Source: an uncultured Clostridium sp. (GTDB lineage: Bacteria; Bacillota; Clostridia; TANB77; CAG-508). Taken from it: a DNA stretch of 64,000 nucleotides. The first letter of the stretch is position 1; each line of letters begins with the position of its first letter. The notes beneath the pieces are model-generated. The model saw only the letters and a list, made by a program, of their open reading frames with translations, did not search any database and was not told the origin of the DNA. The stretch is taken from assembly GCA_948441945.1 (NCBI GenBank), contig CAOJQV010000001.1, positions 46,977-110,976 of the forward strand, in the 5' to 3' direction. Shown piece by piece: positions 33,668-55,435 of the stretch. Made by a program: the position numbers and the translations under genes.

Positions 33668-33698
33668 TGTGCCAAAGGGGACGTCCCTTTTTGGCACA
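33668..33698. repeat. composite palindromic repeat, family B (TGTGCCAAAGGGGACGTCCCTTTTTGGCACA)
   Basis: 9-bp outer inverted repeats around a central GGGACGTCCC palindrome; same unit twice at 52007-52080. Confidence 0.8.
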
Positions 33699-33826
33699 TT
33701 TTATTTTTCTTTTATATGATACAATCTCCTGTTGTCGATTGCATAAGTAATCTGTAACTCTACGCAGCATACTATATACGTAATTCACTTCGTTCAAACG
33801 TCTATAGCAACTTTCGTTCGAACAGA

Positions 33827-35683
33827 TTACTTAATTGCCTTAAATGGACACTTTGTTAGACATGTACCACATTTGATGCATTTTTCTTGATTTATTTTTC
33901 TAACTTCTCTTGCTTCTCCTTCTATTGCATTTACTGGACAATTTTTTTGACATAGCCCACATCCTTTACATTTGTCTGCTTCTATTTCTATTTGTGTTAG
34001 ATTTTTACATTCTTTGCTTCTGCATTGTTTATATGTAACATGTTCTTTATATTCTTCTCTAAAATATTTTAATGTGCTTAATACTGGATTTGGTGCACTT
34101 TGCCCTAGTCCACATACACTTGATTCTCTAACATTTAATGCTAATTTTTCTAGTTTATATATATCTGCTTCTGTTCCTTCTCCATTACATATTCTTTCTA
34201 ATATTTCGTGCATTCTTTTTGTTCCAATTCTACATGGTGTACATTTTCCACAACTTTCTGATACTGTGAAGTCTAAGTAAAATTTTGCTATACTTACCAT
34301 ACATTTTGTATCATCCATAACTATAAGTCCACCTGAACCCATCATTGAACCTATTTCTTTTAGCGATTCATAATCTATTGGTGTATCTAAATGTTCTTTT
34401 GGTATACATCCTCCTGACGGTCCACCTGTTTGTGCTGCTTTAAATTCTCTATTATTTGGAATTCCTCCACCTATGTCATAAACTATTTCTCTTAGAGTTG
34501 TTCCCATTGGTACTTCTACTAATCCTATATTATTTACATTTCCTCCTAATGCAAATACTTTTGTTCCTTTTGATTTTTCTGTTCCTATGTTGTTATACCA
34601 ATCTGCTCCATTTATAATTATTTTTGTTATATTTGCATAAGTTTCTACATTGTTTATAAGTGTTGGCTTACCCCATAATCCTGATACTGCTGGATATGGT
34701 GGTTTTACTCTTGGATGTCCTCTTCTTCCTTCAATTGATTCTAATAGTGCTGTTTCCTCTCCACATACAAATGCTCCTGCTCCTAGTCTAATTTCTATAT
34801 CAAATTCAAATTTTGTTTCAAAAATGTTTTTACCTAATATTCCATATTCTTTTGCTTGGTCTATTGCTATTTGGAATCTTTTAACTGCTATTGGATATTC
34901 TGCTCTAACATATATGTATCCTTTATTTGCTCCTATTGCATATCCTGCTATAATCATAGCTTCTATAACACAATGTGGGTCTCCTTCTAATATACTTCTG
35001 TCCATAAATGCTCCAGGGTCTCCCTCATCTGCGTTACATACTACATATTTTTGGTCTGATTCAACATTTTTAGTTGATTCCCACTTTAGACCTGTTGGGA
35101 ATCCTGCTCCTCCACGTCCTCTTAGTCCTGATTTTTTAATTTCTTCTATTACTTCATCTTGTGTCATAGTTTTTAACACTTTTTCTAGAGCTACGTATCC
35201 ATCAAAGGCTATATATTCATCAATATCTTCTGGATTTATTACTCCGCAGTTTTTTAATGCTATTCTTTTTTGTTTTTTATAGAAGTTAAGTTCATCTAAA
35301 CTGTTTACTTTAGTTCCATCAATATCTTTGCAAAGTAGTCTTTCTACTTTTTTTCCTTCTATAATATGTGTTTGTATTATTTCTTCACAATCTTCTGGCT
35401 TAACCATAGCATAAAATGTGTCTTCTGGTCTTATTATTACTATTGGCCCTTTTGCGCATAATCCAAAGCATCCTGTTTTTATTACTCTTACATTTTCTAT
35501 GTTTTTTTCTTTAATTATTTTTTTGAAATTTTCTAATATTTCTACTGATTTTGATGATGTACATCCTGTTCCATGACATACTAGTATGTGTTTTTCTCTT
35601 GTGTCTAATTTTGTATTTACTCTTAATTCTAGTTCTTTTCTTTTTTGCTCTCTTATATCATTTATTTCTTTTAATGTTTTCAT
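33827..35683 (-). CDS. hydB: NADH-binding subunit of bifurcating hydrogenase (NuoF-like, HydB/HndC)
   Basis: NuoF core (GRGGAGFPTGLKW, FMN/NADH sites) and C-terminal ferredoxin Cys motifs. Confidence 0.9.
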   Translation of the reverse strand: MKTLKEINDIREQKRKELELRVNTKLDTREKHILVCHGTGCTSSKSVEILENFKKIIKEKNIENVRVIKTGCFGLCAKGPIVIIRPEDTFYAMVKPEDCEEIIQTHIIEGKKVERLLCKDIDGTKVNSLDELNFYKKQKRIALKNCGVINPEDIDEYIAFDGYVALEKVLKTMTQDEVIEEIKKSGLRGRGGAGFPTGLKWESTKNVESDQKYVVCNADEGDPGAFMDRSILEGDPHCVIEAMIIAGYAIGANKGYIYVRAEYPIAVKRFQIAIDQAKEYGILGKNIFETKFEFDIEIRLGAGAFVCGEETALLESIEGRRGHPRVKPPYPAVSGLWGKPTLINNVETYANITKIIINGADWYNNIGTEKSKGTKVFALGGNVNNIGLVEVPMGTTLREIVYDIGGGIPNNREFKAAQTGGPSGGCIPKEHLDTPIDYESLKEIGSMMGSGGLIVMDDTKCMVSIAKFYLDFTVSESCGKCTPCRIGTKRMHEILERICNGEGTEADIYKLEKLALNVRESSVCGLGQSAPNPVLSTLKYFREEYKEHVTYKQCRSKECKNLTQIEIEADKCKGCGLCQKNCPVNAIEGEAREVRKINQEKCIKCGTCLTKCPFKAIK

Positions 35684-35711
35684 AAATTATTCTCCCTTCA
35701 AAGATAATCTC

Positions 35712-36197
35712 CTATTTTAGCAATTCATCTAAAACTTCATCCAATTTTTTTACAGTTGCTTTTCCATAAACTTCGTCATTGACTGTAAACACAGGTGCTA
35801 GTCCACAAGCTCCTACACATCTAGTTTGGTCAATTGAAAACATTCCATCTTCTGTTGTTTGACCTGGTTCTATTTTTAGTCTTTCTTTTAATCTATCTAA
35901 TATTTTTTGTGAACCTTTTACATAGCATGCTGTTCCTAAGCAAACTGATATTGTGTATTTTCCTTTTGGTTCTAATGTAAATCTTGAGTAAAATGTTATT
36001 ACTCCATATATTTCTGCCATTGGTATTTTAAGAAATTCTGATATTTTTGTTTGAGATTCTTTTGGAATATATCCAAAATGTTCTTGAACTTCATTTAAAA
36101 TTTGAATTAAATTATCTTTTACTGGTAAATATTCTTGAAACAATCCGTCCATAAATTGGTCTATTTGTTTGTTATTACAATCTTTTTCTTTATTCAT
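35712..36197 (-). CDS. hydC: NuoE-like 2Fe-2S subunit (HydC/HndA)
   Basis: Thioredoxin-like 2Fe-2S ferredoxin: CLGTACYVKG...CVGACGLAP. Confidence 0.85.
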   Translation of the reverse strand: MNKEKDCNNKQIDQFMDGLFQEYLPVKDNLIQILNEVQEHFGYIPKESQTKISEFLKIPMAEIYGVITFYSRFTLEPKGKYTISVCLGTACYVKGSQKILDRLKERLKIEPGQTTEDGMFSIDQTRCVGACGLAPVFTVNDEVYGKATVKKLDEVLDELLK

Positions 36198-36379
36198 TTG
36201 TTACCTCCTTGTTACATTATATTTTTGTAACTATAGAGATTATATCAAAACTAAAATTTTTATACAATATTTTTTTGTTTTTATTTGGCATTTTTTGTCA
36301 TAAGAGGATGGTTCGTTTTAAGATAGCCGTTTGAGTTTAACAAATTATTGATATTTTATGCATTGTGCTGAAACGTTTT

Positions 36380-36409
36380 TTGACTTTATGTAACGTTTTA
36401 TGTTATAAT
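36380..36409 (+). promoter_or_regulatory. strong sigma-A promoter TTGACT-18-TATAAT
   Basis: Sequence ttgactttatgtaacgttttatgttataat, upstream of the 36446 ORF. Confidence 0.5.
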
Positions 36410-36445
36410 ATAAGTATCTAAAAAATTTTAGGAGGTACAGTAAGA

Positions 36446-36709
36446 ATGGAAACAACAACACGGAACAACACAACGAACACAGAGGAACTCAAAATGAAGA
36501 CTTCTTTGATTAAAGATCAGATCAGGTTTGGTCAGCTAAAACATCAGAAAGTTGTCACTGTAGCTTTTCCTAATTCGGATAGAGTTAGCGATGAAGCTAT
36601 TGAGCAAGAGTTTCAAAAGTATTTGAAGTACAAACCTAATTTTACTTCAAAGCAGTCTATCGCAACAGTAGGTTCCAACAGTGTTTCGTTGTGGACCATC
36701 GAAATCTAA
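36446..36709 (+). CDS. small hypothetical protein (87 aa) in a GC-richer patch
   Basis: AGGAGGT RBS and strong promoter. GC clearly above flanks. G6/C5 hairpin terminator at 36717-36752. Confidence 0.45.
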   Translation: METTTRNNTTNTEELKMKTSLIKDQIRFGQLKHQKVVTVAFPNSDRVSDEAIEQEFQKYLKYKPNFTSKQSIATVGSNSVSLWTIEI

Positions 36710-36850
36710 CACCATTCGGCGGGGGGAGAGATACATATCCCCCTGTTTTTTTAATTCTTTTTTATAAAAATTAAAAATTTACTAGACTATGCATTTTTTT
36801 TGTGATATTATATAACATATAAATCAAAAGAAAAACTTTGGAGGTCAATA

Positions 36851-37210
36851 ATGAATAAAATTACAAAAATAATATTAATAATAATTACATTTTTTATATT
36901 AATTTTTACAAATATAAACTATATAAATGGTGTTGACTTAAATTTAACAGAAAATTCTTCAAACAGTAACTCTTATAATACAAACACTGATTATGACGAA
37001 GACGAAGATGATTATGAAAACCAATATAATACTTCAAACTCTACAACAAATACAACATCAAGCAGTTCAACTAACACTCCTTCTGCTAGAGTTACATCTA
37101 CTACAAATTCTGATTTAGAATTATCAAATATTTTAAATATTTTTTTAATAGTTGTAGGTGTTATATTAATATTACTAGCTGTAGCAATTTTACTAAAATT
37201 AAATAGATAA
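36851..37210 (+). CDS. small secreted/membrane-anchored S/T/N-rich protein
   Basis: Signal peptide, low-complexity acidic/STN-rich middle, C-terminal TM anchor. Confidence 0.45.
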   Translation: MNKITKIILIIITFFILIFTNINYINGVDLNLTENSSNSNSYNTNTDYDEDEDDYENQYNTSNSTTNTTSSSSTNTPSARVTSTTNSDLELSNILNIFLIVVGVILILLAVAILLKLNR

Positions 37211-37354
37211 TTTTAAAGCTAAAATTTCATTTTTTGAAAGTTTTTAGCTTTTTTTTGATATTTTAGTCATTTTTTGTATGTATATTTTGTCCATATTTTA
37301 AAATAATAATAATAGATTTTTATAAATCTATTATTTTTTAAGGAGGACAATTTC

Positions 37355-37804
37355 ATGAACAAAAAATTTTTTGTTTTTTTCGGTATTATTGTATCTATTA
37401 TCTTTTCTTTTACATTTTGTTTTGCTACAAATAATGATGGTATGGGAAAAGCTGTAAATGATGTTAGAAATTTTGTAGGTGGTGTTGAAGGTACTGTTGA
37501 AAATGCTGCAAAAGATGTTTCTAATGTTTCTAAAGATGCTACTGGTTCAGTAGAAAACGGATTAGATAACGACCAAAATAATAGAAATGATACTGCTGGT
37601 TTTACTACAAGTGGAAACGATGGTCAATATACAGCAACTAGAACATCAACTGATGATACAACATTAATGGGTATGACTTCTACTGCTTGGACTTGGCTTA
37701 TTTTAGGAATTGCTGCTATAGCTATTATTGCAGTTGTTTGGTATTATTCTATGCAATTTACAAAAACATCTAATCATAATGATGACAATAATAGATTAGA
37801 TTAA
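37355..37804 (+). CDS. small secreted protein with C-terminal TM anchor
   Basis: Same architecture as the upstream gene: signal peptide, then TM helix WTWLILGIAAIAIIAVVWYY. Confidence 0.45.
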   Translation: MNKKFFVFFGIIVSIIFSFTFCFATNNDGMGKAVNDVRNFVGGVEGTVENAAKDVSNVSKDATGSVENGLDNDQNNRNDTAGFTTSGNDGQYTATRTSTDDTTLMGMTSTAWTWLILGIAAIAIIAVVWYYSMQFTKTSNHNDDNNRLD

Positions 37805-37866
37805 TTATTGCAGGTTTGGATTTTTCGTGATATACTATTGCTACATTAAAAATAAGAGGTAAATTT

Positions 37867-38322
37867 ATGGAAACAAAATTAATTGCGAAAAATCCTACTG
37901 CTTTTCATAATTATACTATTGAAGATAAATTAGAAGTAGGTATTGTTCTTTCAGGTACAGAAATAAAATCTATTAGAAATGGTAAAGCAAATATGAAAGA
38001 CAGTTATGCTATAATTAAAAATGCTGAAGTATACATAGTTGGAATGCATATTAGTCCTTATGAACAAGGAAACATCTTTAATAAAGATCCTTTAAGAGAT
38101 AGAAAATTACTTTTAAATAGACGTGAAATCAATAAGTTAATTGGTCTTACTAAACAAAAAGGTTATAGCTTAGTTCCTATTAGTATGTATTTTAAAGGTA
38201 GTTTAGTAAAAATAGAACTTGGGTGTGGTAAAGGTAAAAAACTATATGATAAACGTGAAGACATTGCTAAAAAAGATGCTGAAAGAAGAATTAAACAACA
38301 AATGTCTATAAGAAATAAGTAA
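37867..38322 (+). CDS. smpB: SsrA-binding protein
   Basis: [45 protein letters not shown] is canonical SmpB. Confidence 0.9.
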
Positions 38323-38376
38323 GATGGAAAAAAAGGGATTTTTGTCCTTTCCCTTTTTCCTTCTTTTCTTTTTATT

Positions 38377-39309
38377 TTATGCTTTATTTTCTGAACCAAA
38401 AACATTTACAATTTTATGTTTTACAGTTTCTTTAATTAATTCTCTTGCTTCTCCTAAATATTTTCTTGGGTCAAAAGCATTTGGATTTTCAGCAAATACT
38501 TTTCTAATTCCTGCTGTCATAGCAAGTCTAAGGTCTGTATCTACATTAATTTTTGATACTCCTGAAATGCTGGCTTCATGTAATATTTCATCTGGAACTC
38601 CTTTTGCTCCTGGAATGTCTCCTCCAAATTCATTACACATATTAACTAATTCTGGTATAACAGTTGATGCTCCATGTAGTACAATTGGAGTGTTTGGTAT
38701 CCTTTCTTTAATTTCCTTTAATATGTCAAATCTTAATTTTGCTTCACCTTTAAATTTATATGCTCCATGACTTGTACCAATAGCAATTGCTAATGAATCA
38801 CATCCTGTTCTTTTTACAAATTCCTCTGCTTGTGCTGGGTCTGTATACATTGCATCTGATGCTTCTACATTTACATCATCTTCAATTCCTGCTAATTTAC
38901 CAAGCTCTGCCTCTACTGTTACACCATGCTTATGTGCATAATCTACTACTTTTTTTGTTAATGCTATATTTTCTTCAAAATCATATTTTGAACCATCTAT
39001 CATAACTGATGTAAATCCATTATCTATACACATTTTTGCTGTTTCAAAATCTGGTCCATGGTCTAAATGAATTGCTATTGGTATATTTGGATTTTCTTCT
39101 ACTGCTGCTTGTACCATTTTCATTAGATAATTTATTCTTGCATATTTTATTGCACTTGATGATACTTGTAAAATTACTGGTGAGTTTGTTTCTGATGCTG
39201 CATCTACTATTCCTTGTATTATTTCCATATTATTTACATTAAATGCTCCTATTGCAAATCCTTCTTTCATTGATTTTTCAAACATTTCTTTTGTTGTTAC
39301 TAAAGCCAT
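38377..39309 (-). CDS. fba: fructose-bisphosphate aldolase, class II
   Basis: HLDHG, Zn ligands, FDILKE...LHGASTV motifs. Confidence 0.9.
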   Translation of the reverse strand: MALVTTKEMFEKSMKEGFAIGAFNVNNMEIIQGIVDAASETNSPVILQVSSSAIKYARINYLMKMVQAAVEENPNIPIAIHLDHGPDFETAKMCIDNGFTSVMIDGSKYDFEENIALTKKVVDYAHKHGVTVEAELGKLAGIEDDVNVEASDAMYTDPAQAEEFVKRTGCDSLAIAIGTSHGAYKFKGEAKLRFDILKEIKERIPNTPIVLHGASTVIPELVNMCNEFGGDIPGAKGVPDEILHEASISGVSKINVDTDLRLAMTAGIRKVFAENPNAFDPRKYLGEARELIKETVKHKIVNVFGSENKA

Positions 39310-39476
39310 TTTTATTTCCTCCTTATATTTTTAATTATATTGCTATTTTATTTCTAAAATACGAATATGTCAATATTTTTTTAATATTATGTGTTTTTTA
39401 GGAAGTTTTAAACATTTGTTAACATTTTTTTATTTTTTCTAATATTATACACAAAAGTGAAAGGAGTTTATTTTTT

Positions 39477-40184
39477 ATGGATTATGAATTAATGATGAAT
39501 GGAAATGTAAAGATTGGTCAAAAAGCTCCAGATTTTGAAGCTACTACAAGTTGTGGTCCTGTCAGCTTAAATGATTATAAAGGAAAATGGTTGGTTTTAT
39601 TTTCACACCCAGGTGATTTTACCCCAGTTTGTACTACTGAGATGATTGCTTTTACAAGAGCTTCTACATACTTTAAGCAACTAAATACTGAACTTTTGGG
39701 ATTAAGTATTGATAGCAATTCTTCACACTTAGCTTGGATATACAACATTTATTGCAAAACAGGAATTCAAGTTAATTTTCCTATTATAGCAGATAGAAGC
39801 GGTCAAATTGCAAGAAAGTATGGAATGATATCATCTGATGTAAGTACTACAGAGACTGTTCGTAATGTATTTATTATTGATGATAAAGGCATAGTAAGAG
39901 CTATTTTTGTTTATCCATTAAACGTAGGAAGATTTATCCCCGAAATTATAAGAACTATTCAAGCACTTCAAATGGCTGACTGTTCTGAAGGTTCTACTGC
40001 TGCAAACTGGATGCCTGGTCAACCTGTAATTGTTCCACCTCCTCAAACTTATTGCCAATTAGAAGAAAGAGTTAAATCTATAGAAGAAAATCAAAACGGA
40101 ATTAGTTGGTATTTAAGTTTTAAAGAGCCACCTAAAATCTGTGAAAAAAATGATTCTAATAAGAATAATGATGAATGTAATTAA
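39477..40184 (+). CDS. peroxiredoxin (1-Cys/Prx6-like, AhpC/TSA family)
   Basis: KGKWLVLFSHPGDFTPVCTTE peroxidatic Cys motif; C-terminal extension. Confidence 0.85.
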   Translation: MDYELMMNGNVKIGQKAPDFEATTSCGPVSLNDYKGKWLVLFSHPGDFTPVCTTEMIAFTRASTYFKQLNTELLGLSIDSNSSHLAWIYNIYCKTGIQVNFPIIADRSGQIARKYGMISSDVSTTETVRNVFIIDDKGIVRAIFVYPLNVGRFIPEIIRTIQALQMADCSEGSTAANWMPGQPVIVPPPQTYCQLEERVKSIEENQNGISWYLSFKEPPKICEKNDSNKNNDECN

Positions 40185-40212
40185 TTGTAACACATTGCTT
40201 ATTACAAATAAT

Positions 40213-40252
40213 GTACTAAACTCAAAATTAGATATTTTTTTGAGTTTAGTAC
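40213..40252 (+). terminator. terminator hairpin with 15-bp perfect stem
   Basis: gtactaaactcaaaa-ttagatatttt-tttgagtttagtac. Confidence 0.55.
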
Positions 40253-40632
40253 ATTATAGCTTTTTTAATACAAGTTATAGAAGCATTATTAACATTAATA
40301 TCTCCTGTACCCCCATTTTTAATAGTACCACCAGAAACAACTATATTTTGTAATTTTATATTAGTAGATGTATTATTAAAATTAGATTTAACTCTTAATT
40401 TAATAGAAAATATATTTTCAAATACATTTTTATCATAAATTAATTAAGCTGTATTGCCTCCACTTGCTAGTGAAACTGTAGATATTTTTAATAGTATTAT
40501 AATAAAAATTTTAGAAATTTTTTCCATTAACATAAACATATACATAATACATATTTTAGGAGATTTTTCAAGTACTTTTTTAATTTAATGTAATTAATTT
40601 TTGATAATGTCATAGTAAAATTAACATTTGAT

Positions 40633-40674
40633 TATGTCATAGTGAACTGCTTGATTACAGTTCACTATGACATA
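40633..40674. repeat. orphan 17-bp perfect inverted repeat (TATGTCATAGTGAACTG-8-CAGTTCACTATGACATA) with an upstream half-site copy
   Basis: Perfect 17-bp stem with no T tail, in a ~550-bp gene-free region between convergent genes; partial copy aatgtcatagtaaaa at 40606-40620. Confidence 0.6.
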
Positions 40675-40796
40675 ATTAAAAGTTAATTTTAATATTTTTT
40701 TATGACATTTTCAAAAGTTATTGACATTGATATTTTTTCCAGTTTTTATACAAACAAAAAACCTAACACAACTCAGCGTTAGGTTTTTTGTTATTG

Positions 40797-41264
40797 CTAA
40801 AAAAATTTCCACTTTAATAGTATACAACATTTTTCATTTCTTCTAATGAATCCTCCCATATGGTATATTCCTGAAAGTTCAAATTTAACTTTAGACAGTT
40901 TGTTTAAATCTCCTATTAATTCCTCTACATATTGATTCAAAATATTTATTTTTACTTCATCTCCAAAACCTTTTACATTTAGATCAGATTGTGAAAAATA
41001 AATACTAATAGGATTTTTAGACTTAATACAACTACTAGCGAGCTGTACATCGTCTTTTTTGACTTTATTTAGTTGTTTTGCAACTTCAAGGGCATTCCGT
41101 TTTTTGACTTCAAAAAACTCATCATTAGTCCAGCCTTTTTGACTGAGAAATGTTCTTGGAAATTTCCATCGATATTGGATAAGTATAGTCTTTTCCAATT
41201 CTTTAGCAATTGAGGTCATTTTTTCTAACTTTGTCGTTAATTCTAATTCTGTCATTTCTTTCAT
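40797..41264 (-). CDS. hypothetical protein
   Basis: 155-aa ORF with bidirectional terminator aacctaac...gttaggtt downstream. Confidence 0.45.
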   Translation of the reverse strand: MKEMTELELTTKLEKMTSIAKELEKTILIQYRWKFPRTFLSQKGWTNDEFFEVKKRNALEVAKQLNKVKKDDVQLASSCIKSKNPISIYFSQSDLNVKGFGDEVKINILNQYVEELIGDLNKLSKVKFELSGIYHMGGFIRRNEKCCILLKWKFF

Positions 41265-41349
41265 TTTCCTCCTTATACTGTTCTAAGCCTCTAATTCAAC
41301 ATTTAATCATTTTAATTATACTATATTTTTTTATAAATTTCAACTCTTT

Positions 41350-42552: not shown

Positions 42553-42617
42553 TATACTTTTCCTTTCTTTTTATACTAAAATAGACCGTTCTGTTTAAAA
42601 CATTTTTATTTAAATAA

Positions 42618-42648
42618 TGTCCCACAAGTAAACGTCCCTTTTGGGACA
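42618..42648. repeat. composite palindromic repeat, family A (TGTCCCACAAGTAAACGTCCCTTTTGGGACA)
   Basis: 7-bp outer IR TGTCCCA/TGGGACA with inner GTCCC-TTTT-GGGAC hairpin; between the two ack genes. Confidence 0.8.
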
Positions 42649-43842: not shown

Positions 43843-43857
43843 TTTAAATCCTCCTCT

Positions 43858-43984
43858 TGAGACAATTGGGACAGTCCAAATTTGTCTTATTTTTTTGCCG
43901 TTTTTTGTCGTTATTAAATACTTTGTATCTTCGACATTTTTTGACATATTTATGAGACAAATTTGGACTGTCCCAACTGTCTCA
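43858..43984. repeat. inverted pair of family C composite palindromes (TGAGACAAATTTGGACTGTCCCAACTGTCTCA), 63-bp spacer
   Basis: Copies at 43858-43889 and 43953-43984 in opposite orientation. Outer IR TGAGACA/TGTCTCA, inner GGACTGTCC. The spacer contains the TTCGACATTTTT motif also found at 55382. Confidence 0.8.
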
Positions 43985-45754: not shown

Positions 45755-45807
45755 AAACTTACTTCCTTTCTTTTAAATTTAACTTGTATCGAAACACTCC
45801 TTAAAAA

Positions 45808-45838
45808 TGTCCCACAAGTAAACGTCCCTATTGGGACA
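45808..45838. repeat. composite palindromic repeat, family A
   Basis: tgtcccacaagtaaacgtccctattgggaca between spoIIIAG and spoIIIAH. Confidence 0.8.
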
Positions 45839-46463: not shown

Positions 46464-47068
46464 TCTTCCTTCACCCCATATTCTTGTTTCAAGAAGTCTT
46501 TTATTATTTTAATATCAGTTTTTGTTATTTTACTTTCTTCTTCTGATGATTCTTCTTTATTATCTGATACATTGACTTCTACTTTTTGAATTTTTTGGAT
46601 TTCTGTTATAATCTTGTCTTCTAAAGTATTTTGTTCTTCATTTTCTTCAGAAATCTTTCCTGAAATTTTAAGTACTATTTTCTCAATCCCACTATCTTCT
46701 TGTGATATATGTGCTTCTACTGTGCAAGTTTCTACTTCATATCCTTTATCTTCTATTTTTCTTTTAATATCTTTTTCTAGCTCTGTTTCATATATCTCAT
46801 TTAGCCTTCTATCCATCGAAGATTGGTCGACTTTTGAGTCTGTTTGCATTACATCTTCTGAAGTATCTATATATGAATTAAATTCATTTAAATTAAATTT
46901 GTCTTTATTATCAATAAATGGTGATATTATGCTAAATAATATATATAACCCCATTATCATTTTTACATATTTTTTAGTTTTATTATTTGGTAATAGCATT
47001 TCTAATATAGAAACTATTATAAGTGCTAAACTTAAGTTTTTAACCCATGTACTCATAAAATTTATCAT
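46445..47068 (-). CDS. spoIIIAF: stage III sporulation protein AF
   Basis: Two N-terminal TM helices, acidic C-terminus; position in operon. Confidence 0.7.
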   Translation of the reverse strand: MINFMSTWVKNLSLALIIVSILEMLLPNNKTKKYVKMIMGLYILFSIISPFIDNKDKFNLNEFNSYIDTSEDVMQTDSKVDQSSMDRRLNEIYETELEKDIKRKIEDKGYEVETCTVEAHISQEDSGIEKIVLKISGKISEENEEQNTLEDKIITEIQKIQKVEVNVSDNKEESSEEESKITKTDIKIIKDFLKQEYGVKEECLKIS

Positions 47069-48231: not shown

Positions 48232-48248
48232 ATTTTTATACCCTCCTT

Positions 48249-48334
48249 TGTCCCAAAAGGGACGTTTACCTTTGGGACATTTTTCATTTAATCTTTGAGA
48301 CAATGTCCCAAAGGTAAACGTCCCTTTTGGGACA
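48249..48334. repeat. inverted pair of family A composite palindromes, 24-bp spacer
   Basis: 48249-48279 TGTCCCAAAAGGGACGTTTACCTTTGGGACA, and its exact reverse complement at 48304-48334. Confidence 0.85.
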
Positions 48335-48721
48335 TCATGGTAAAATTCTCAGAATTACTTCTAATAAACTAGATATAATAGGAATTGACATAGAAATTAT
48401 AATAATCTTGCTTCCTAATTCTATTTTACTAGCAATTGCTGCTTCTCCTGAGTCTTTACATATACTTACTGCAAATTCTGATAAAAATGCTATTCCTGTA
48501 ATCTTGATTAGTAAACTTATGAATTGCATGTTTATAGAAAACTTGTCCTCTATATTTTGAATTAATTGAATTATTCCTGTTAGCTTGTCCATAACTAGGA
48601 ATAGTATTAATATTCCTGTTAATATGCTAATAAAAATCGCATATTCTGGTCTATATTGTTTTAACATTATTATAATAATAAGAGCAATTAAAGCAATTCC
48701 AATTATTTTAATAATTTCCAT
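48335..48721 (-). CDS. spoIIIAD: stage III sporulation protein AD
   Basis: 128-aa four-TM protein, in operon position. Confidence 0.8.
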   Translation of the reverse strand: MEIIKIIGIALIALIIIIMLKQYRPEYAIFISILTGILILFLVMDKLTGIIQLIQNIEDKFSINMQFISLLIKITGIAFLSEFAVSICKDSGEAAIASKIELGSKIIIISMSIPIISSLLEVILRILP

Positions 48722-48739
48722 TACTTACTATTCACTCCT

Positions 48740-48934
48740 TTATAAATTAAATAATGTTCTAACAGTGTCAAATAATCCACTTATTTCTTTTATTACCATA
48801 GTTAAAACAATTACTAATCCCGCAAGTGTTGTCATCATTGCTTGGTCTTCTCTTCCTGCTCTTACTAGAACTTGATACAGAACAGCAACTAAAATTCCTA
48901 TTGCTGCAATTTTAAATAATAAATCAATACTCAT
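48740..48934 (-). CDS. spoIIIAC: stage III sporulation protein AC
   Basis: 64 aa with two TM helices. Confidence 0.8.
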   Translation of the reverse strand: MSIDLLFKIAAIGILVAVLYQVLVRAGREDQAMMTTLAGLVIVLTMVIKEISGLFDTVRTLFNL

Positions 48935-48943
48935 AAAATCCCC

Positions 48944-49457
48944 TCTTTATATTAATATAATTACAAGTGCTAATCCTATTGTACTTCCTAATTTTTTATA
49001 TAGTTTTTCGTTTTTTTCTTTCTCTTCTCTTGCTTCTTTTATTTGTTTGTTTAGTAATTCTTCTGTTACTTCAATTTGTCCAATTTGCCCTTCTACATCT
49101 GTGATTCCGCAATAATTTTGATAATGTTTTTAATGTTTGCTTGTCCTCTTTTTTTAGATTTCCTTCTATTTCATCTACTGATTTTTCATAAGCTACTGAT
49201 GCATTTTCTCTTTCCATTTTTTCTTTTGCATTTTTAAATAGTTTAGATATTGTTTGATAAGTATTTTTAGATATTTCGTCAAATATTTCTGGTATTGGTT
49301 CGTAAGTAAATTTTATTTTGCTTTTAAATATATTTAGTGCGTTTTTCATTTCTTCTAATTCTTCTAATCTAAATTTATATTTTTGTGATATGTATTTTCC
49401 TATTAGTGTTGAAGAAAGAAACACACAAAAAAGCATACAATATTTAATAAACTGCAT
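48944..49457 (-). pseudogene. spoIIIAB: stage III sporulation protein AB, interrupted by a 1-nt frameshift near 49105-49118
   Basis: The N-terminal 128-codon frame ends ...LSKLLRNHRCRRANWTN*. The adjacent frame encodes the expected C-terminus ITDVEGQIGQIEVTEELLNKQIKEAREEKEKNEKLYKKLGSTIGLALVIILI*. Removing one base from ttgCgg restores KLLGITD. Confidence 0.65.
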
Positions 49458-49526
49458 AATTTTTATACTCCTTGCATTTTATTTTTAATATTATATGCTT
49501 GATATTTTATTTTAGAACTTATATTT

Positions 49527-50837
49527 TTATTTTTGTATCCAATCAAATGAATTTATTAATTTATCTGATTGTTTTACTAACTCTTTCTCATCTTTTAAAG
49601 TAAAACTATATGATGTAATACATGCTAAACTATCTCCATTTAAAATATAGTAATAATATAATATTTCTTCTGGGTCTGATGAGTATGTCATTCTAACTTT
49701 TACTAAATCATATCCTTTTTCTGTTTTTAATGTATCTATATTAAATTCATCTGGTTTATCATCAGTTGAATTAAATGTGTTTTGTAAATTTGTTTTTATA
49801 TCTTCTACATTACTTACAATTGAAGTATCTACTGTGTTATAGAATATGTTTATAACTGCTGGATAAGATGAATAATCTCCTTCTTGTATTGTATTTGTGT
49901 CTGATACTGGAATAGTACTTATATAACGATAAAAATTCCATTCTGTTTCATATTGTGAATCTGATTTTTCCCAGTTGTCTGATATTTTAAACTCTACTGT
50001 TCCATCAGTTATTGTATTGTCTGATACAATATTTTTTGTAATTATTGACATAGCTACAGCTCCAACTGCTATAACTACTAATATAATTCCCATTATTATG
50101 AAAGCTGTCATTTGTTTAGTTCTCATTTGTTTTGCTTCATTTTCTTCTGAATAATAATATTTTCCTTTATATTTTTTGATAATTCCTAATTGTTTTAAGT
50201 ACATAAATTGTTGTTTTGCCATAGCATCTTCTGTTTCTGCAAAAACCTCTTCTTTCATCATAGCTTTTTCTTGATTTACTGCATCATATTTTGTAAATAT
50301 TGGTTTAATTAATTCAATTGCTGCATTTTTTCTTTCTTTGATTTCTTCACTATTGTTAAGGTCTAATTTAATTTCTTTTCCATCACTATTTGCTATTTGT
50401 TTTTTTAAGTTAGCTGTAATAACACTTGCTCCTAAAATTGTAAATACAATTGAAATTGCAAAGTCATGCATAATTGCTGATGAGAATTCAGAATTTTGAT
50501 ATAGTTTTGAAATATTATCTACACTTACATGCATTCCTTCTTTTTGAATTAGTAATCCTGGTATAATAACTAATGTTGCAACTGTAACAATAATTATTGC
50601 GATTACCATTAAAATTGCTGGTACTCCTTTGCTCATTTTTCCTTTTAATAACTTATAACCATAAAATTCTCCTGCCGCAATTAAAACTGCAAGTATTGAT
50701 AACATCATATTTCCATAAACATATACTAATACCCATGGAATTGTTGTTATTACTCCTCCTATAATTGCTCCTATAATACCTGTTATGTAATTACCATCTT
50801 GCATTTTGTTTGGCTTTTCTTTGATTTCTTCTTCCAC
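49527..50837 (-). CDS. hypothetical polytopic membrane protein with large C-terminal extracytoplasmic domain (not spoIIIAA)
   Basis: No Walker motifs. GTG start with an AAGGAGGA RBS; sits where spoIIIAA would be expected. Confidence 0.5.
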   Translation of the reverse strand: MEEEIKEKPNKMQDGNYITGIIGAIIGGVITTIPWVLVYVYGNMMLSILAVLIAAGEFYGYKLLKGKMSKGVPAILMVIAIIIVTVATLVIIPGLLIQKEGMHVSVDNISKLYQNSEFSSAIMHDFAISIVFTILGASVITANLKKQIANSDGKEIKLDLNNSEEIKERKNAAIELIKPIFTKYDAVNQEKAMMKEEVFAETEDAMAKQQFMYLKQLGIIKKYKGKYYYSEENEAKQMRTKQMTAFIIMGIILVVIAVGAVAMSIITKNIVSDNTITDGTVEFKISDNWEKSDSQYETEWNFYRYISTIPVSDTNTIQEGDYSSYPAVINIFYNTVDTSIVSNVEDIKTNLQNTFNSTDDKPDEFNIDTLKTEKGYDLVKVRMTYSSDPEEILYYYYILNGDSLACITSYSFTLKDEKELVKQSDKLINSFDWIQK

Positions 50838-50927
50838 TTTTTTGTATCCTCCTTTATAAAATATTGTTAGAACTAATTTATCATAAATTTTTATATTATG
50901 CAATAAAAATATCTTATTTTATAACAA

Positions 50928-51986
50928 TTAAACTCTTAATATTTTCCCACCACCAACAACAATATCATCAATATAAAAAACTGCTGACTGTCCTGGAGTT
51001 ATTGCTCTTTGTGGCTCATCAAATATAACATTAATTTTATCATCATTTTGTATGATTTTTGCTTTTGCTGATTTTGCTGAATATCTGGTTTTAACTTCAA
51101 CTTCTAGCCAATCTTTTATTTCATCTAATAATAATAGATTTATATCTGTAACTATAATCTCCTTTTTATATAATTCACTTTCTTCTCCCACAATTACTTG
51201 ATTTTTCACTGGATTAAAATCTAGAACAAATAATGGAGCTTTATAAGAAACGCCAAGTCCTTTGCGTTGCCCTATTGTATAGTTATATAATCCTGTATGT
51301 TTTCCTAATATTTCTCCTTTTGAATTTACTATATCTCCTTGCTTTGGTTTTATATTAGAATTATTTTCTAAAAATTTTTTATAATTACCATCAGGTATAA
51401 AGCATATATCTTCACTATCTGGCTTGTTTGCTACTTTTAAATTATTTTTTCTTGCTATTTCTCTTATTTGTTCTTTTTCTTCAAAATTAGATAATGGAAA
51501 TAATATATGTTCTATCAAATCTTTTGGTATATTCCATAAAACATAACTTTGGTCTTTTTTACCCGCCTTTGATTTTTTTAAAACCCATCTTCCATATTCT
51601 TCATTATATTCCGTTTTTGCATAATGTCCTGTTGCAATATAATTGCATCCTAATTCTTTTGCTTTTTCCCACATAAAACCAAATTTCATATATTTATTAC
51701 ATTCAATACATGGATTTGGTGTTTTGCAATTTGAATAACAGTCTATAAAATCTTCTATAACATATTTTTTAAATTCATTTTTATAATCATAAGTAAAATG
51801 TGGTATGCCAATTGAGTTACATACTTTTTTGGCATCTAGATATGTATTTACATTACAACAACTACTTCCTACAAATAGTTCTAAAGTAGCTCCAATTGGC
51901 TCATATCCTTGTTGTTTTAATAGTAGTGCTGATACTGAACTGTCAACTCCTCCACTCATTCCAAGTAATACTTTATTATTTTCCAT
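50928..51986 (-). CDS. mnmA: tRNA 2-thiouridine(34) synthase MnmA
   Basis: PP-loop LLGMSGGVDSS and catalytic Cys motifs; the longer ORF N-terminus is repeat-derived. Confidence 0.85.
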   Translation of the reverse strand: MENNKVLLGMSGGVDSSVSALLLKQQGYEPIGATLELFVGSSCCNVNTYLDAKKVCNSIGIPHFTYDYKNEFKKYVIEDFIDCYSNCKTPNPCIECNKYMKFGFMWEKAKELGCNYIATGHYAKTEYNEEYGRWVLKKSKAGKKDQSYVLWNIPKDLIEHILFPLSNFEEKEQIREIARKNNLKVANKPDSEDICFIPDGNYKKFLENNSNIKPKQGDIVNSKGEILGKHTGLYNYTIGQRKGLGVSYKAPLFVLDFNPVKNQVIVGEESELYKKEIIVTDINLLLLDEIKDWLEVEVKTRYSAKSAKAKIIQNDDKINVIFDEPQRAITPGQSAVFYIDDIVVGGGKILRV

Positions 51987-52006
51987 TTCTTTCTTCTTTC
52001 TTAACT

Positions 52007-52080
52007 GTGCCAAAGGGGACGTCCCTTTTTGGCACATTTTTTATTTTTTTGTGCCAAAAAGGGACGTCCCCTTTGGCACA
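52007..52080. repeat. inverted pair of family B composite palindromes, 12-bp AT spacer
   Basis: 52007-52037, and its reverse complement at 52050-52080. Confidence 0.85.
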
Positions 52081-52081
52081 T

Positions 52082-52513
52082 TTATTTTTTGTTTAATATT
52101 CCTTCGATTGTATGCCACGCTAAAAGAGCACATTTTACTCTTGCTGGCATATTTGATACATTTCTAAATGCAATTGCGTCTTCTAATTTTTTTAGTTGTT
52201 CTTCATCAGTAGTTTCTCTTTTTATCATATTAATAAATGTTTTTACAATTTCTTTTGCTTCTTCTATTGTTTTTCCTTTTAATGTGTCTATCATTATAGA
52301 TGTAGAACTTTGTGAGATTGCACATCCATGTCCATTAAATGCCATATCTTCTATTATATTTCCATTTAATTTTATTTCTAATGTTATTTCATCTCCACAA
52401 TTGGGATTATGTCCCATTTCTGAATAGTCAGCTTTTTCTAATTTTTTCTTGTTGTATGAGTTCATACTGTGTTCCATTATAAGTTCGTTGTAAACACTGT
52501 TTAAATCTTCCAT
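52082..52513 (-). CDS. iscU: Fe-S cluster assembly scaffold (NifU/IscU N-terminal domain family)
   Basis: Conserved Cys motifs NPNCGDEI, GHGCAIS. Confidence 0.8.
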   Translation of the reverse strand: MEDLNSVYNELIMEHSMNSYNKKKLEKADYSEMGHNPNCGDEITLEIKLNGNIIEDMAFNGHGCAISQSSTSIMIDTLKGKTIEEAKEIVKTFINMIKRETTDEEQLKKLEDAIAFRNVSNMPARVKCALLAWHTIEGILNKK

Positions 52514-52519
52514 TAAAAT

Positions 52520-53161
52520 CTAACCTTTCTTTATATTTAAGTTTTGCAAACTTTCCATCATAATATCAAATACTTCTTCAATACTCTTATTTGTTGTATC
52601 TATTTCTATTGCATTTTCTGGTTTTACAAAATTACCACCGTTTATATCAATATAATCTATTACTTCTAAATTGTGCCTTATTTCTTCAATATCAATTTTC
52701 TCATTTTTCTTCCATGCTCTTTCTACTCTTGTTTCAAAATCCGAATATAAATAAAATTTAATTTCTGCATTTGGAGCAATTCTTGTTGCTATATCTCTTC
52801 CTTCTATTACAGTATCATATTTTTCTAAAAAATCTAATTGTATTTTTTTAACCAATTGTTTAATTTCTTTAAGTGTTGCCCAATTATTTGCCTTTATTGA
52901 TACTTCTTCTGTTCGAATTTCATCTCTTACATCTTTTCCATTTAATAGTACTTTATCAGAATCAAAATTTATGTCTATTTTTTTTAATTTATTTAAAGTA
53001 TTTTCCATATTACTAATATCCAAATTTTTATTTATTATTTCTAGTGCTATACATCTATATATAGCACCTGTATTAAAATTTTTAAAATTTAATTTCTTTG
53101 AAATCATTTTTGCTAAGGTTGACTTTCCATTAGTACTTAATCCATCAATTGCTATTATCAT
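52520..53161 (-). CDS. cmk: cytidylate kinase-like P-loop kinase
   Basis: IIAIDGLSTNGKSTLAK P-loop plus cytidylate-kinase-like core; unusual position inside an Fe-S cluster operon. Confidence 0.6.
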   Translation of the reverse strand: MIIAIDGLSTNGKSTLAKMISKKLNFKNFNTGAIYRCIALEIINKNLDISNMENTLNKLKKIDINFDSDKVLLNGKDVRDEIRTEEVSIKANNWATLKEIKQLVKKIQLDFLEKYDTVIEGRDIATRIAPNAEIKFYLYSDFETRVERAWKKNEKIDIEEIRHNLEVIDYIDINGGNFVKPENAIEIDTTNKSIEEVFDIMMESLQNLNIKKG

Positions 53162-53169
53162 TTTTTCTC

Positions 53170-54388
53170 CTATATTTTTATATATTTTTTAAACATATCA
53201 TAAGCTTTATTCAAAGCCATAATTAACTTATCAACATCTTCTTTTGTATTATAGAAATAAAAACTTGCCCTACATGTTGAGTCTATTCCAAGAAATCTCA
53301 TAAGAGGTTGTGCACAATGATTTCCAGAACGTACACAAACACCTTCAGAGTCTAAAATGCTTGCAACATCATGTGGATGTACACCATTTATATTAAATGA
53401 AATTACTCCTGAATGATTTTCTTCGTTTGGTGTCAAATACAATGTTATAAAATCTAGCTTTGATAGTTCTTTTTTTGCATATTCTATAACTTTTCTTTCT
53501 AATTCTTGTATTTTATTATATCCTAAATTTTCAATATAATCAATTGCTGCTCCTAAACCTATTACACCTTCAACATTTTGTGTACCTGCCTCAAATTTAT
53601 TTGGAAGTGATGCATAAGTTGTTTCTTGTTCATATACATATTCAATCATATCTCCACCCATTAAAAATGGATTCATTTTATTTAATAATTCTCTTTTTCC
53701 ATATAGGACACCTATTCCTAATGGTGCTAACATTTTATGTCCTGAAAATACAAGGAAATCTGCATCTAGTTCTTGTACATCTATTTTTATATGAGGAATG
53801 CTTTGAGAGGCATCTACAATTACAATTGCTCCTTTTTTATGTGCATATTTTATGATTTTTTTAATATTATTTATTGTTCCGAGTTACATTCGAAACATGT
53901 GCAATACCAACTATTTTTGTCTTATCTGTTATTTTACTTTCTATTTCTTGATCAGATAATTCAAATTCTTTATTTATATACATATAATTTAATTTTGCAT
54001 CTGTCACTTTGGCTACCTTTTGCCATGGTACTAAATTTGAATGATGCTCCATTATTGATATAACTATTTCATCATCTTTTTTTACATTATCAATCCCATA
54101 AGAATATGCAATTAGATTTAAGCTTTCTGTTGCATTTTTTGAGAATATTATTTCTTCTCTATGTTTTGCATTTATGAATTCTGCGATTTTACTTCTTGTA
54201 TTTTCATAAACCTCCGTTGCTTCCATACTTAGAGTATAAGCTCCTCTATGTGGATTTGCATTATATTTTTTATAGAAGTTTTCTACTGATTTTATTACTT
54301 GTATTGGTTTTTGTGTTGTTGCTCCACTATCTAAGTATGTTATTTGGTTATTTGCTAAAAGTGGAAAGTCTTTTTTTATTTCTTTCAT
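53170..54388 (-). pseudogene. sufS: cysteine desulfurase (SufS/NifS class), interrupted by a 1-nt insertion near 53877-53884
   Basis: N-terminal ORF ends ...GIAHVSNVTRNNK*. The adjacent frame continues LGTINNIKKIIKYAHKKGAIVIVDASQSIPHIKIDVQELDADFLVFSGHKMLAPLGIG..., including the PLP-Lys region SGHKM and active-site Cys RSGNHCAQP. Removing one A from gtaActc restores HVSNVLGTINN. Confidence 0.7.
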
Positions 54389-54509
54389 TTATATATTTTC
54401 CTTTCTTCTTTACTTTATGTTGATTATATGGTATAATATTTTAAACTTAAATTTTAAAGTATAGCTTTTTTAATACTTTATCACATCACAACATAAGGAG
54501 GATTTTATC

Positions 54510-54746
54510 ATGATGATGCCAGACAGACTTTACTATTCAATACGTTCAACAGTAAGAGAATTCACTGACTTTGTTCCTAACATTTATTGCCGGGAAAACT
54601 CTTCAATTATTAGAGTTGCTTTTGTAGGGGATATTCCAGATAAAAAAACTCTAAAAAACATTAAGAGTAGTCTAAGAGAATTCGGCCTCCCTTTATGTCG
54701 TAAGCATAAGGGCTATACAGAATTTTCAATCTTCTTTGCCTCCTAA
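54510..54746 (+). CDS. small hypothetical protein (78 aa), GC-richer
   Basis: AAGGAGG RBS 8 nt upstream; terminator hairpin ttgcctcc-taat-ggaggcaa. Confidence 0.4.
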   Translation: MMMPDRLYYSIRSTVREFTDFVPNIYCRENSSIIRVAFVGDIPDKKTLKNIKSSLREFGLPLCRKHKGYTEFSIFFAS

Positions 54747-54761
54747 TGGAGGCAAAACCTT

Positions 54762-55361
54762 TTATTTTAGTATTTCCTTTTCTATTTTTTCATAAATTTC
54801 ATCCCAGTCTTTAACTCTTTCAATACTTCCAGCATCTATATTTTCATTCATTTTAGTAGTCATTAAAAATGTTTTTATACCGTTTTCTTCTAATTGTTCA
54901 CAAGTTTCATAACTATCCTCTATAAATATTTGTATACCATTGTCTATGCAAAATTGCAGTTTCTCTTTGGCATTAACTATTAATTTATCATATGGAATAT
55001 TATTGTCTTGTAATGTCTTTATTGTGATGCTTTCTGTATCACAGTTTTTTATATTTAAAAGTCTTGCAGTTATAAATAATATTTCATTACCTTCTTCTTT
55101 TAATTTTCTAATTACTTCAGGTGCATTTAACATTACTTCACATTCTTCTAATACATTTTTATAATAAGTATCAAAAAAATCAAATTTTGTTTTTTCATCC
55201 CAACCATATAATACTTTTATATAATATCTATTTTGTATTAAGCCTAAATTTCCATTTGTTCCTTTTCCTCCTAATATTTGTGTATCATATAAATCTGCAT
55301 ATTTAATCATTGATTTTACAGTTATTACAGTTGTATCATCTATATCTATTCCTATTTTCAT
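54762..55361 (-). CDS. 5'(3')-deoxyribonucleotidase (HAD superfamily)
   Basis: N-terminal DxDxT motif (IGIDIDDTT) and HAD core. Confidence 0.65.
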   Translation of the reverse strand: MKIGIDIDDTTVITVKSMIKYADLYDTQILGGKGTNGNLGLIQNRYYIKVLYGWDEKTKFDFFDTYYKNVLEECEVMLNAPEVIRKLKEEGNEILFITARLLNIKNCDTESITIKTLQDNNIPYDKLIVNAKEKLQFCIDNGIQIFIEDSYETCEQLEENGIKTFLMTTKMNENIDAGSIERVKDWDEIYEKIEKEILK

Positions 55362-55403
55362 AACTACTCCTTTTTATTATTTCGACATTTTTCTACAATC
55401 TAG

Positions 55404-55435
55404 TGAGACAAATGAAGACTGTCCCACTTGTCTCA
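55404..55435. repeat. composite palindromic repeat, family C
   Basis: tgagacaaatgaagactgtcccacttgtctca, preceded by the ttcgacattttt motif shared with 43931. Confidence 0.8.

Follow-up and report, generated by a model that had tools for sequence, protein, structure and literature searches.

The 64,000-nt stretch of DNA from an uncultured Clostridium sp. analyzed here (hereafter, the window) has a G+C content of 27 to 30% and carries most of its genes on the minus strand. Gene calls with NCBIfam and Pfam include hydC, hydB, and hydA, two ack genes and pta, spoIIIAB to spoIIIAH, mnmA, sufU, cmk, sufS, an NT5C-like HAD gene, and sufD. Several spacers between these genes hold short palindromic repeats, of which the original prediction had listed ten copies in three families. 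Here, we characterize these repeats and consider it highly probable that they belong to three co-resident, non-autonomous families similar to repetitive extragenic palindromic (REP) sequences and their hairpin-forming doublets (REPINs), each with a cognate Y1/HUH transposase.

The units of family A (TGTCCCA..), family B (TGTGCCA..), and family C (TGAGACA..) are 31 to 32 nt long and are built from a 7-bp terminal stem around a conserved ACGTCCC(C)/GGGACGT motif. In the F orientation, the 31-mer of families A and B reads TGTSCCA-N8-ACGTCCC-NNN-TGGSACA, and R is its reverse complement. With at most one mismatch, the pattern TGTSCCA-N17-TGGSACA matched the window at 33668, 42618, 45808, 48249, 48304, 52006, and 52050 and did not match any of 100 shuffled sequences. 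The pattern TGAGACA-N18-TGTCTCA matched at 43858, 43953, and 55404, against a chance expectation of 0.2. The ten copies and three families described previously are thus far above chance, and their positions were largely accurate, except that the copy assigned to 52007 starts at 52006 and that the motif reported at 43931 and 55382 is TTCGACA at 43930 and 55381. A central GGAC..GTCC palindrome had been attributed to all three families; however, the core of family A is GGGACGTTTAC, which has no central palindrome. The copies and one further candidate are arranged as follows.

33668 to 33698, no strand assigned: family B solo copy, the fully palindromic "double-foot" TGTGCCAAAGGGGACGTCCCTTTTTGGCACA, with its end 4 nt before the hydA Shine-Dalgarno sequence.
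42618 to 42648, minus strand: family A solo copy, R on the sense strand, beginning right after the TAA stop codon of the upstream ack gene.
43858 to 43984, no strand assigned: family C doublet with arms 43858-43889 and 43953-43984 (32 nt each) and a spacer of 63 nt.
45808 to 45838, minus strand: family A solo copy, R on the sense strand, with the spoIIIAG stop codon (TAG) inside the copy.
48249 to 48334, no strand assigned: family A doublet whose arms, 48249-48279 and 48304-48334, are separated by a spacer of 24 nt.
52006 to 52080, no strand assigned: family B doublet between sufU (stop codon 1 nt off) and mnmA, whose arms, 52006-52036 and 52050-52080, are separated by an A/T spacer of 13 nt.
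55381 to 55435, minus strand: family C solo unit, consisting of a 32-nt copy (55404-55435) and TTCGACA (55381-55387), R on the sense strand.
5492 to 5522, no strand assigned: decayed relative or chance match, not counted, with a B-type outer stem TGTGCCA..GGCACA (one mismatch) and without the CGTCC core.

All ten copies are intergenic, lie between 33.6 and 55.4 kb, and have co-directional minus-strand genes on both sides, as had been predicted, although the gene then named iscU is sufU. They occupy the hydB/hydA, ack/ack, pta/ack, spoIIIAG/AH, spoIIIAD/AE, sufU/mnmA, and sufD/NT5C-like HAD gene spacers, where they either follow a stop codon by 0 to 1 nt (or overlap it) or precede a Shine-Dalgarno sequence or start codon by 1 to 19 nt, and spacers with two copies hold one at each end. 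The family C doublet extends from 1 nt past the pta stop codon to 2 nt before the ack Shine-Dalgarno sequence, the family A doublet from the spoIIIAD stop codon (TGA, 0 nt) to 1 nt before the spoIIIAE Shine-Dalgarno sequence, and the first three bases of the copy at 55404-55435 are the sufD stop codon TGA. Word counts of stems and cores across the window revealed no further copies outside the 33.6- to 55.4-kb region. All ten copies thus cluster within 22 kb, with none in the remaining 42 kb despite similar-looking gene orientation and density.

The three head-to-head pairs noted earlier were recovered as inverted pairs at 48249/48334 (arms of 33 nt, 100% complementary), 52002/52084 (arms of 35 nt, 97%), and 43858/43984. 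Folded as sense-strand RNA, these doublets form stems of 30 to 33 bp with energies of -61 to -63 kcal/mol and z-scores of -11 to -16: about 30 bp, -60.9 kcal/mol, and z = -11.4 for the family C doublet; 33 bp, -63 kcal/mol, and z = -10.8 for the family A doublet; and -62.2 kcal/mol and z = -15.9 for the family B doublet. Among the solo copies, the family A copy at 42618 gave an RNA hairpin of -19.3 kcal/mol (z = -5.5), and the family B copy at 33668 gave a DNA hairpin of -10.8 kcal/mol (z = -4.8). The spacer of the family A doublet (48280-48303) contains TTGAGACAA / TTGTCTCAA, a family C stem word that may be a remnant of nested or neighboring insertions.

The families are not restricted to the window; such a restriction had been named as a refutation of the original prediction. 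When one genome per species was scanned with the fixed-length A/B pattern TGTSCCANNNGGGACGTNNNNNNNNGGSACA, the matches listed comprised more than 102 stretches from about 28 species, with about four chance matches estimated, and the C pattern was found in 63 stretches of metagenome contigs, mostly labeled human gut. These copies beyond the window therefore favor the finding. The hosts of families A and B are nearly all metagenome-assembled genomes (MAGs) of uncultured low-GC Clostridia from chicken, rabbit, goat, deer, mouse, and human guts. Among the matches listed, MAG CALXJX has at least 38 B copies, and MAG CAOKJC has at least 16 A, at least 16 B, and at least 2 C copies.

Stem positions 4 and 28 form a C:G pair in family A and a G:C pair in family B and are complementary in 158 of 159 copies. 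This represents genuine covariation, because the search pattern let these positions vary. Position 7 is an A in 157 of the 159 copies, facing T25. In most species, the unit consists of the 7-bp stem and a 17-nt loop carrying the invariant core; in the window copies, the inner part pairs as well, resulting in DNA hairpins of -8 to -11 kcal/mol. The family B copies of the window, GGGGACGTCCC, resemble the outer halves of one R and one F copy fused to each other. A "double-foot" form of this kind has been described as a collapsed dimer (Quentin et al., PMC6006769), and by analogy the window B copies may have arisen in this way.

Two families carry an additional module on the inner side of the unit. 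A 16-nt hairpin, TGTCCCA-N1-4-TGGGACA, lies beside 50 of 88 A copies, and TTCGACA lies beside 62 of 93 C copies, at a distance of 6 or 16 to 17 nt; neither module was ever seen on the outer side of these copies. TTCGACA occurs only twice in the window, at 43930-43936 as a subterminal module within the spacer of the family C doublet and at 55381, each time 16 nt from a C copy, which is the modal spacing in the family. The earlier suggestion that the family C unit is longer than 32 bp, about 55 bp, was therefore right, and the heptamer interpreted as a Spo0A box is part of the element. As it is a module of the C element that also flanks the C-type transposase gene, its reading as a locus-specific Spo0A site is not supported.

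The arrangement of close pairs is strictly directional, with 35 R..F pairs versus no F..R pair. In MAG CALXJX, the arms are perfectly complementary in 16 of 17 doublets, across six sequence variants. When partners were shuffled, a mean of 14.9 mismatches was obtained versus the 1 observed, and none of 10,000 shuffles reached such a low number. Exact complementarity of the arms even at positions that vary within one genome is a REPIN signature. No excess partner matching between doublet arms was detected for family C in the pooled metagenome data. Doublet spacers are AT-rich and 8 to 106 nt long, and some are related to each other and found in both orientations (L092/L096 and L020/L053). Invertible segments were considered and rejected, since spacer orientation was identical in all strains.

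A link between the repeats and transposases emerged from two R..F pairs spaced about 0.8 to 1 kb apart, each enclosing an open reading frame (ORF) of about 260 amino acids. The ORFs matched Pfam Y1_Tnp with 43 to 64 bits (cut-off, 23), and the best NCBIfam model was "REP-associated tyrosine transposase" (REP_Tyr_transpos; RAYT in the following), with 69 to 76 bits. Six such genes were found in loci fetched by the A/B pattern alone, two in family C loci, and four via a look-up with protein P0005; screens used tblastn and hidden Markov models (HMMs) derived from RAYT homologs on about 1.4 Mb of loci. Every gene is bracketed by copies of its own family, R on the upstream side and F on the downstream side. 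Within the window, no transposase was detected by tblastn or transposase HMM. The three gene types are located as follows.

A-type gene: upstream of radA in L033, L048, and L038 (at least three species); in L035, the contig ends before radA.
B-type gene: between queA and tgt in L051, L109 to L112, and L113.
C-type gene: in L120, L142, and L177 to L180, with recD2 on one side and a comF-like gene on the other; the bracketing C copies carry TGTCGAA/TTCGACA on their inner side.

The A, B, and C lineages of these proteins are 27 to 33% identical to each other. They comprise 246 to 262 amino acids, and H-x-H, Y121, N125, and P126 are invariant in the alignment; Y121, N125, and P126 make up the Y---NP signature that marks class 2 TnpA-Y1 proteins (PMC6006769). 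A helix-turn-helix-like motif, IS..QL.R..GI.RK.I.R, is conserved at the C terminus. Searches of the isolated C-terminal parts against Pfam returned weak matches, the best being HTH_26 with E = 0.003. The family profile had a single match in the PDB, 4ER8 (E. coli TnpA-REP), with E = 2e-6, while a single-sequence PDB search produced a spurious match only. In a Foldseek search, the AlphaFold model of P0005 (pLDDT 86.9), which includes helices in region 184-247, matched 4ER8 best, with IS608, ISDra2, and IS200 TnpA ranking next. In the family-profile consensus, the GTAG-contacting residues E100 and H101 of TnpA-REP align to S and K. Their replacement fits the absence of GTAG from these repeats.

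For the B-type gene, a connection to the species of the window is suggested by L112. This contig stems from sample ERZ14231455 and has a coverage of 5.17, and L004, whose Ack is identical to that of the window, stems from the same sample with a coverage of 5.18. Three B copies flank the gene in L112, two of which are identical to window 31-mers, whereas the one over the 3' end of the gene differs by 1 nt. The 31-mer at 33668 is among the sequences flanking the RAYT gene in L109 to L112. Because L112 and L004 come from one sample at equal coverage and the 31-mers around the gene match those of the window, the species of the window probably carries a B-type transposase gene. The homolog list for the A-type transposase comprised 1,096 proteins, and the look-up for the C-type (P0114) returned other samples, not that of the window.

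Two observations concern the surroundings of such genes. In L109 (6790-7575), and also in L110 to L112, which are attributed to the species of the window, a 261-amino-acid ORF with a weak NUDIX match (E = 0.006) lies between the B-type gene and tgt, inside the repeat bracket; it is missing from the same site in L051. L102 (2300-3500), from a Collinsella sp. MAG with 66% G+C, contains a RAYT-like gene and, flanking it, CGTGCCGTTAGGGTACGTCCCTTTTGGCACG, which has a GTGCC..ACGTCCC..GGCAC layout like family B at a very different base composition. This layout suggests that the core motif may be tied to this transposase clade across phyla.

Comparison of related genomes and strains revealed turnover of the copies. 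The most similar MAG, CAOKJC, shares 87 to 90% identity with the window across the hyd genes, and its hydB/hydA spacer holds a degenerate A-type composite in place of the B copy. In CALXJX, the pta and two-ack spacers are devoid of copies, whereas in the window they hold one A copy and the family C doublet. CAWVJG has an A copy directly after the spoIIIAG stop codon, as in the window, but none before spoIIIAE. Six metagenome contigs with an Ack identical to that of the window contain the same copies with strain differences, so that a comparison proposed with the original prediction did detect presence/absence polymorphism: L001 lacks one arm and the spacer of the spoIIIAD/AE doublet (a 55-nt indel), and in L004 an extra B copy right after the hydC stop codon opens an insertion of about 500 bp (11072-11604) between hydC and hydB. 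Two short ORFs, of 35 and 83 amino acids, lie in this insertion. Since orthologous spacers differ between species and strains differ as well, the turnover fits a mobile, decaying population better than conserved operators.

Throughout the set of 264 copies, 259 are extragenic and 5 are deep inside long ORFs. When ORFs of 80 or more amino acids are considered, 72 copies start between -3 and +2 nt from a stop codon, with 63 of them R, 3 F, and 6 palindromic on the sense strand. Sixty copies end at most 30 nt before a Shine-Dalgarno sequence with a start codon, mostly with a gap of 0 to 5 nt, and here 45 are F, 7 R, and 8 palindromic. From this polarity it follows that the outer ends of the elements abut gene boundaries. 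This precise placement could result from the availability of these sites alone for harmless insertion, from a target preference, or from selection. Solo copies show an orientation bias that could stem from replication or from transcription, with a single discordant locus available for the comparison. Three of the intragenic copies (L140, 1288-1319; L144, 8090-8121; and L079, 329-359) lie inside ORFs of 439 to 734 amino acids and keep the frame open, e.g., RQSNETNSDCPNCLKIL. By analogy with rickettsial palindromic elements, these may be in-frame insertions.

Searching the whole window against Rfam 15 returned no match at gathering thresholds, the only sub-threshold hits being microRNA-hairpin look-alikes on the doublets; known RNA families were therefore rejected. 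The hairpins at stop codons and Shine-Dalgarno sequences and the 30- to 33-bp duplexes may secondarily alter translation termination or initiation, or mRNA processing. The repeats also account for the spurious ORF extensions that had been pointed out before, as peptides of the MCQKG... type are present both in ORF calls and in database proteins.

We propose the following scenario for the spread of these repeats, in which enzymatic mobilization is inferred, whereas the structure and distribution of the families, the covariation within doublets, the association with the transposase gene, and the protein fold were shown above. The replicating form would most likely be the inverted doublet (R..spacer..F), folding into one long hairpin. 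The predicted RAYT/TIRYT-type Y1/HUH transposase of each family, about 250 amino acids long, whose gene sits in a giant doublet of its own repeats, would recognize the hairpin in single-stranded DNA and cut and rejoin it. Cutting and rejoining would seed copies at the few permissive sites, between a stop codon and the next Shine-Dalgarno sequence. Solo copies would be decayed or collapsed doublets, and the copies of the window would be passengers in the hyd, pta-ack, spoIIIA, and suf-mnmA operons, co-transcribed with their genes. Dispersal over multiple species, REPIN-like doublets, and RAYT-like genes thus bring together two options of the original prediction, REP-like mosaic elements and miniature mobile elements.

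Several points weigh against this proposal. Neither a transposition event nor an excision junction nor enzymatic activity was observed, and the NCBIfam scores of the transposases fall just under the curated cut-off of 80. The GTAG tag is absent from the position profile and flanks of the repeats, the units starting with TGTSCCA or TGAGACA. Recurrence of the same gene neighbors across species was seen in contig fragments, not in complete genomes. The B-type gene is linked to the species of the window by sample, coverage, and 31-mers, not by one contig, and the A- and C-type genes were found in related species or metagenomes only. Moreover, the spoIIIAG site is occupied in two species, although the DNA there is only about 69% identical (A copy in L099), and placement of the copies could reflect selection for a host function, not mere tolerance.

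A rival explanation is that the repeats are selected "punctuation" of operons, i.e., RNA hairpins serving as RNase III or RNase Y sites, as 3' or 5' stabilizers, or as modulators of termination and re-initiation, with the transposase only maintaining and spreading them. We regard this as unlikely. In its favor are the strict polar placement of the 264 copies, the perfect long stems and very low z-scores of the doublet RNAs, and the copy after the spoIIIAG stop codon in two distant species. In E. coli, translation of the upstream gene is reportedly lowered when a REP lies no more than about 15 nt from the stop codon. REPs have also been implicated in translation regulation (PMC6006769). However, the operons concerned have no functional relation to each other, orthologous spacers of relatives hold another family or none, copy content differs between strains, and tight stop-to-Shine-Dalgarno junctions are also the sole harmless insertion sites. 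In a more elaborate form, which we find rather improbable, the copies would have been co-opted such that R sits on the stop codon and F on the next Shine-Dalgarno sequence, the 30- to 33-bp duplex is cut (e.g., by RNase III) or stalls ribosomes and thereby sets the expression of neighboring cistrons in the hyd, pta-ack, spoIIIA, and suf operons, and a domesticated helix-turn-helix transposase keeps the population uniform.

The doublets also look like elements of 100 to 170 bp with 31-bp terminal inverted repeats, and together with the related spacers in both orientations this recalls ordinary miniature inverted-repeat transposable elements, deletion derivatives of a DDE-type insertion sequence. 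Such an origin is very improbable, because neither the ten window copies nor the flank profile showed a target-site duplication, the repeats bracket Y1/HUH genes (in the RAYT-query screens of about 1.4 Mb of loci; no DDE search was made), and every arm forms a hairpin of its own around a conserved loop motif, like REPs and the ends of IS200/IS605 elements. Their palindromic nature and the proximity to hyd (redox), suf (Fe-S), and spoIIIA (sporulation) operons could likewise point to operators of a dimeric transcription factor, be it a redox, Fe-S, or sporulation regulator or Spo0A via TTCGACA, whose reverse complement, TGTCGAA, is the Spo0A box consensus. Yet the copies sit at stop codons and Shine-Dalgarno sequences within operons and not at promoters, the three families have differing half-site sequences, dozens of copies per genome lie beside unrelated genes, the copies vary between strains and species, and TTCGACA travels with the C element and flanks the C transposase gene. 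The dimeric-regulator site entertained previously, whose supposed copies travel with a transposase, is therefore hardly credible. Intrinsic terminators or attenuators between genes come closest to being negligible: the hairpins are GC-rich relative to the genome, and a consensus scan flags 52006, 48249, and 42634, but all flagged sites are on the plus strand and thus antisense to the genes. In agreement with the earlier statement that the repeats are not terminators, no copy has a sense-strand hairpin followed by a U-run, the flanks being A-rich or running into a Shine-Dalgarno sequence, and the copies lie inside operons, directly before Shine-Dalgarno sequences.

Mobilization of the repeats by cognate Y1/HUH transposases, which we favor, invites comparison with the REPIN-RAYT systems of Pseudomonas and Enterobacteria, where REP doublets form hairpins and the RAYTs belong to Groups 2 and 3 (Bertels and Rainey, PMC3116915, PMC5581495). 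Shared features are short extragenic palindromes in dozens or more copies per genome, with several coexisting families; inverted doublets with variable spacers and covarying arms, and solo remnants; and for each family a repeat-flanked Y1/HUH gene of its own at a conserved chromosomal site. In contrast, the hosts described here are Clostridia (Firmicutes), the repeats have a conserved ACGTCCC(C) in the 17-nt loop or inner stem instead of GTAG, the transposase is about 100 amino acids longer, with a C-terminal helix-turn-helix and replaced equivalents of E100/H101, and the copies abut stop codons and Shine-Dalgarno sequences with strict polarity.

Closest to the repeats of the window, as judged by resemblance, is the sparsely studied TIRtron/TIRYT class. 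TIRtrons are RAYT-like genes in long inverted repeats with GGGGWSAS, forming moderately abundant families (Di Nocera et al. 2013, PMC3733652). TIRYTs constitute subclass 2.1 of TnpA-Y1, long proteins with a C-terminal helix-turn-helix that correspond to Group 1 RAYTs, and no REP-like sequences were reported near subclass 2.1 genes (Quentin et al. 2018, PMC6006769). Group 1 RAYTs occur in Clostridia, with flanking 16-mers reaching only about 12 occurrences (Bertels 2017, PMC5581495). TIRtrons and TIRYTs are probably the same as subclass 2.1 and Group 1 RAYTs. Like TIRtrons, the systems described here consist of a RAYT-like gene in long inverted repeats rather than GTAG REPs, with dimer-organized, moderately abundant families, and like TIRYTs they encode a long protein with a C-terminal helix-turn-helix. 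The repeats also contain a G-rich GGGGAC.. motif reminiscent of the published GGGGWSAS consensus: the 31-mers carry GGGGACGT, fitting 6 of 8 positions, and the inner 16-nt hairpin of L084, GGGGACAC, fits fully. Unlike in the descriptions of subclass 2.1 and Group 1, the flanking repeats here are hairpins that form sizeable REPIN-like populations.

With IS200/IS605 elements and their miniature derivatives, the palindrome-associated transposable elements, the repeats share the Y1/HUH fold of the transposase, subterminal hairpins as predicted recognition elements, the lack of target-site duplication, and the strand or orientation bias of solo copies. However, the transposase genes occupy the same chromosomal position across species instead of being scattered as identical copies, the ends are inverted repeats of each other whereas those of IS200/IS605 differ, and the best structural and profile match is TnpA-REP, not IS608-type TnpA. 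The bacterial interspersed mosaic elements of E. coli resemble the doublets in being inverted pairs between co-transcribed or convergent genes, transcribed in operon mRNAs, with proposed roles in mRNA stability and translation. They differ in their unrelated sequences and in pairing REP types Y and Z, while both arms of the doublets have the same sequence. CGTC-tagged REPs have an unpaired CGTC at the end of an 8- to 9-bp stem, a 4- to 5-nt loop, and a CCA tail (Di Nocera 2013, PMC3733652), and were rejected as an identity of the repeats, whose CGTC is internal (positions 16-19 of 31), with a 7-bp stem and a 17-nt loop in the common variants.

In the literature searched, REPINs have been linked to Group 2 and 3 RAYTs only; for long helix-turn-helix RAYTs (Group 1, subclass 2.1, TIRYT), a lack of REP-like partners has been described (PMC5581495, PMC6006769). 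No paper on REPINs or RAYT-linked repeats in Firmicutes was found in the literature searched, which is not proof of absence. Discussions of REPIN-RAYT systems treat them as replicators that are long-lived and inherited vertically and that occur mainly in Gammaproteobacteria, and the repeats described here extend this picture to Firmicutes. Three coexisting families with cognate transposase genes in gut Clostridia provide a Gram-positive model for testing the role of the transposase. The repeats also mark intergenic sites at which the expression of central metabolic and sporulation operons may be altered by strong RNA hairpins. With regard to annotation, they account for spurious ORF extensions and for some of the errors in gene calling in these MAGs.

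Apart from the three repeat families, the window contains further features. A giant imperfect palindrome of about 420 nt occupies an intergenic region at 60709-61127 and consists of nested inverted repeats of 77 nt (84%), 39, 31, 19, and 26 nt (92%). It has no Rfam match, and parts of 60759-61077 are 79 to 85% identical to the extreme ends of four JAAWDR contigs (L015, L021, L046, and L095). Because the matches fall at contig ends, the palindrome probably represents a further dispersed hairpin element, one at which assemblies break. A 38-nt inverted repeat at 40592-40695, unrelated to families A, B, and C, is 92% complementary, with an 8-nt gap and a second overlapping arm, and sits in a 600-nt gap between divergent genes (40185-40796). 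The suf cluster (52520-55361) has an unusual composition, with cmk (cytidylate kinase) between sufS and sufU, the NT5C-like HAD phosphatase gene between sufD and sufS, and mnmA after sufU. Within this cluster, sufS is split (53733-53900) into an N-terminal ORF (53867-54388) and a C-terminal ORF (53170-53733) by a frameshift near 53880, where ..HVSNVT goes out of frame and the next frame reads GTINNIKKIIKYAHKKGAIVIVDASQS, representing either a pseudogene or an assembly error.

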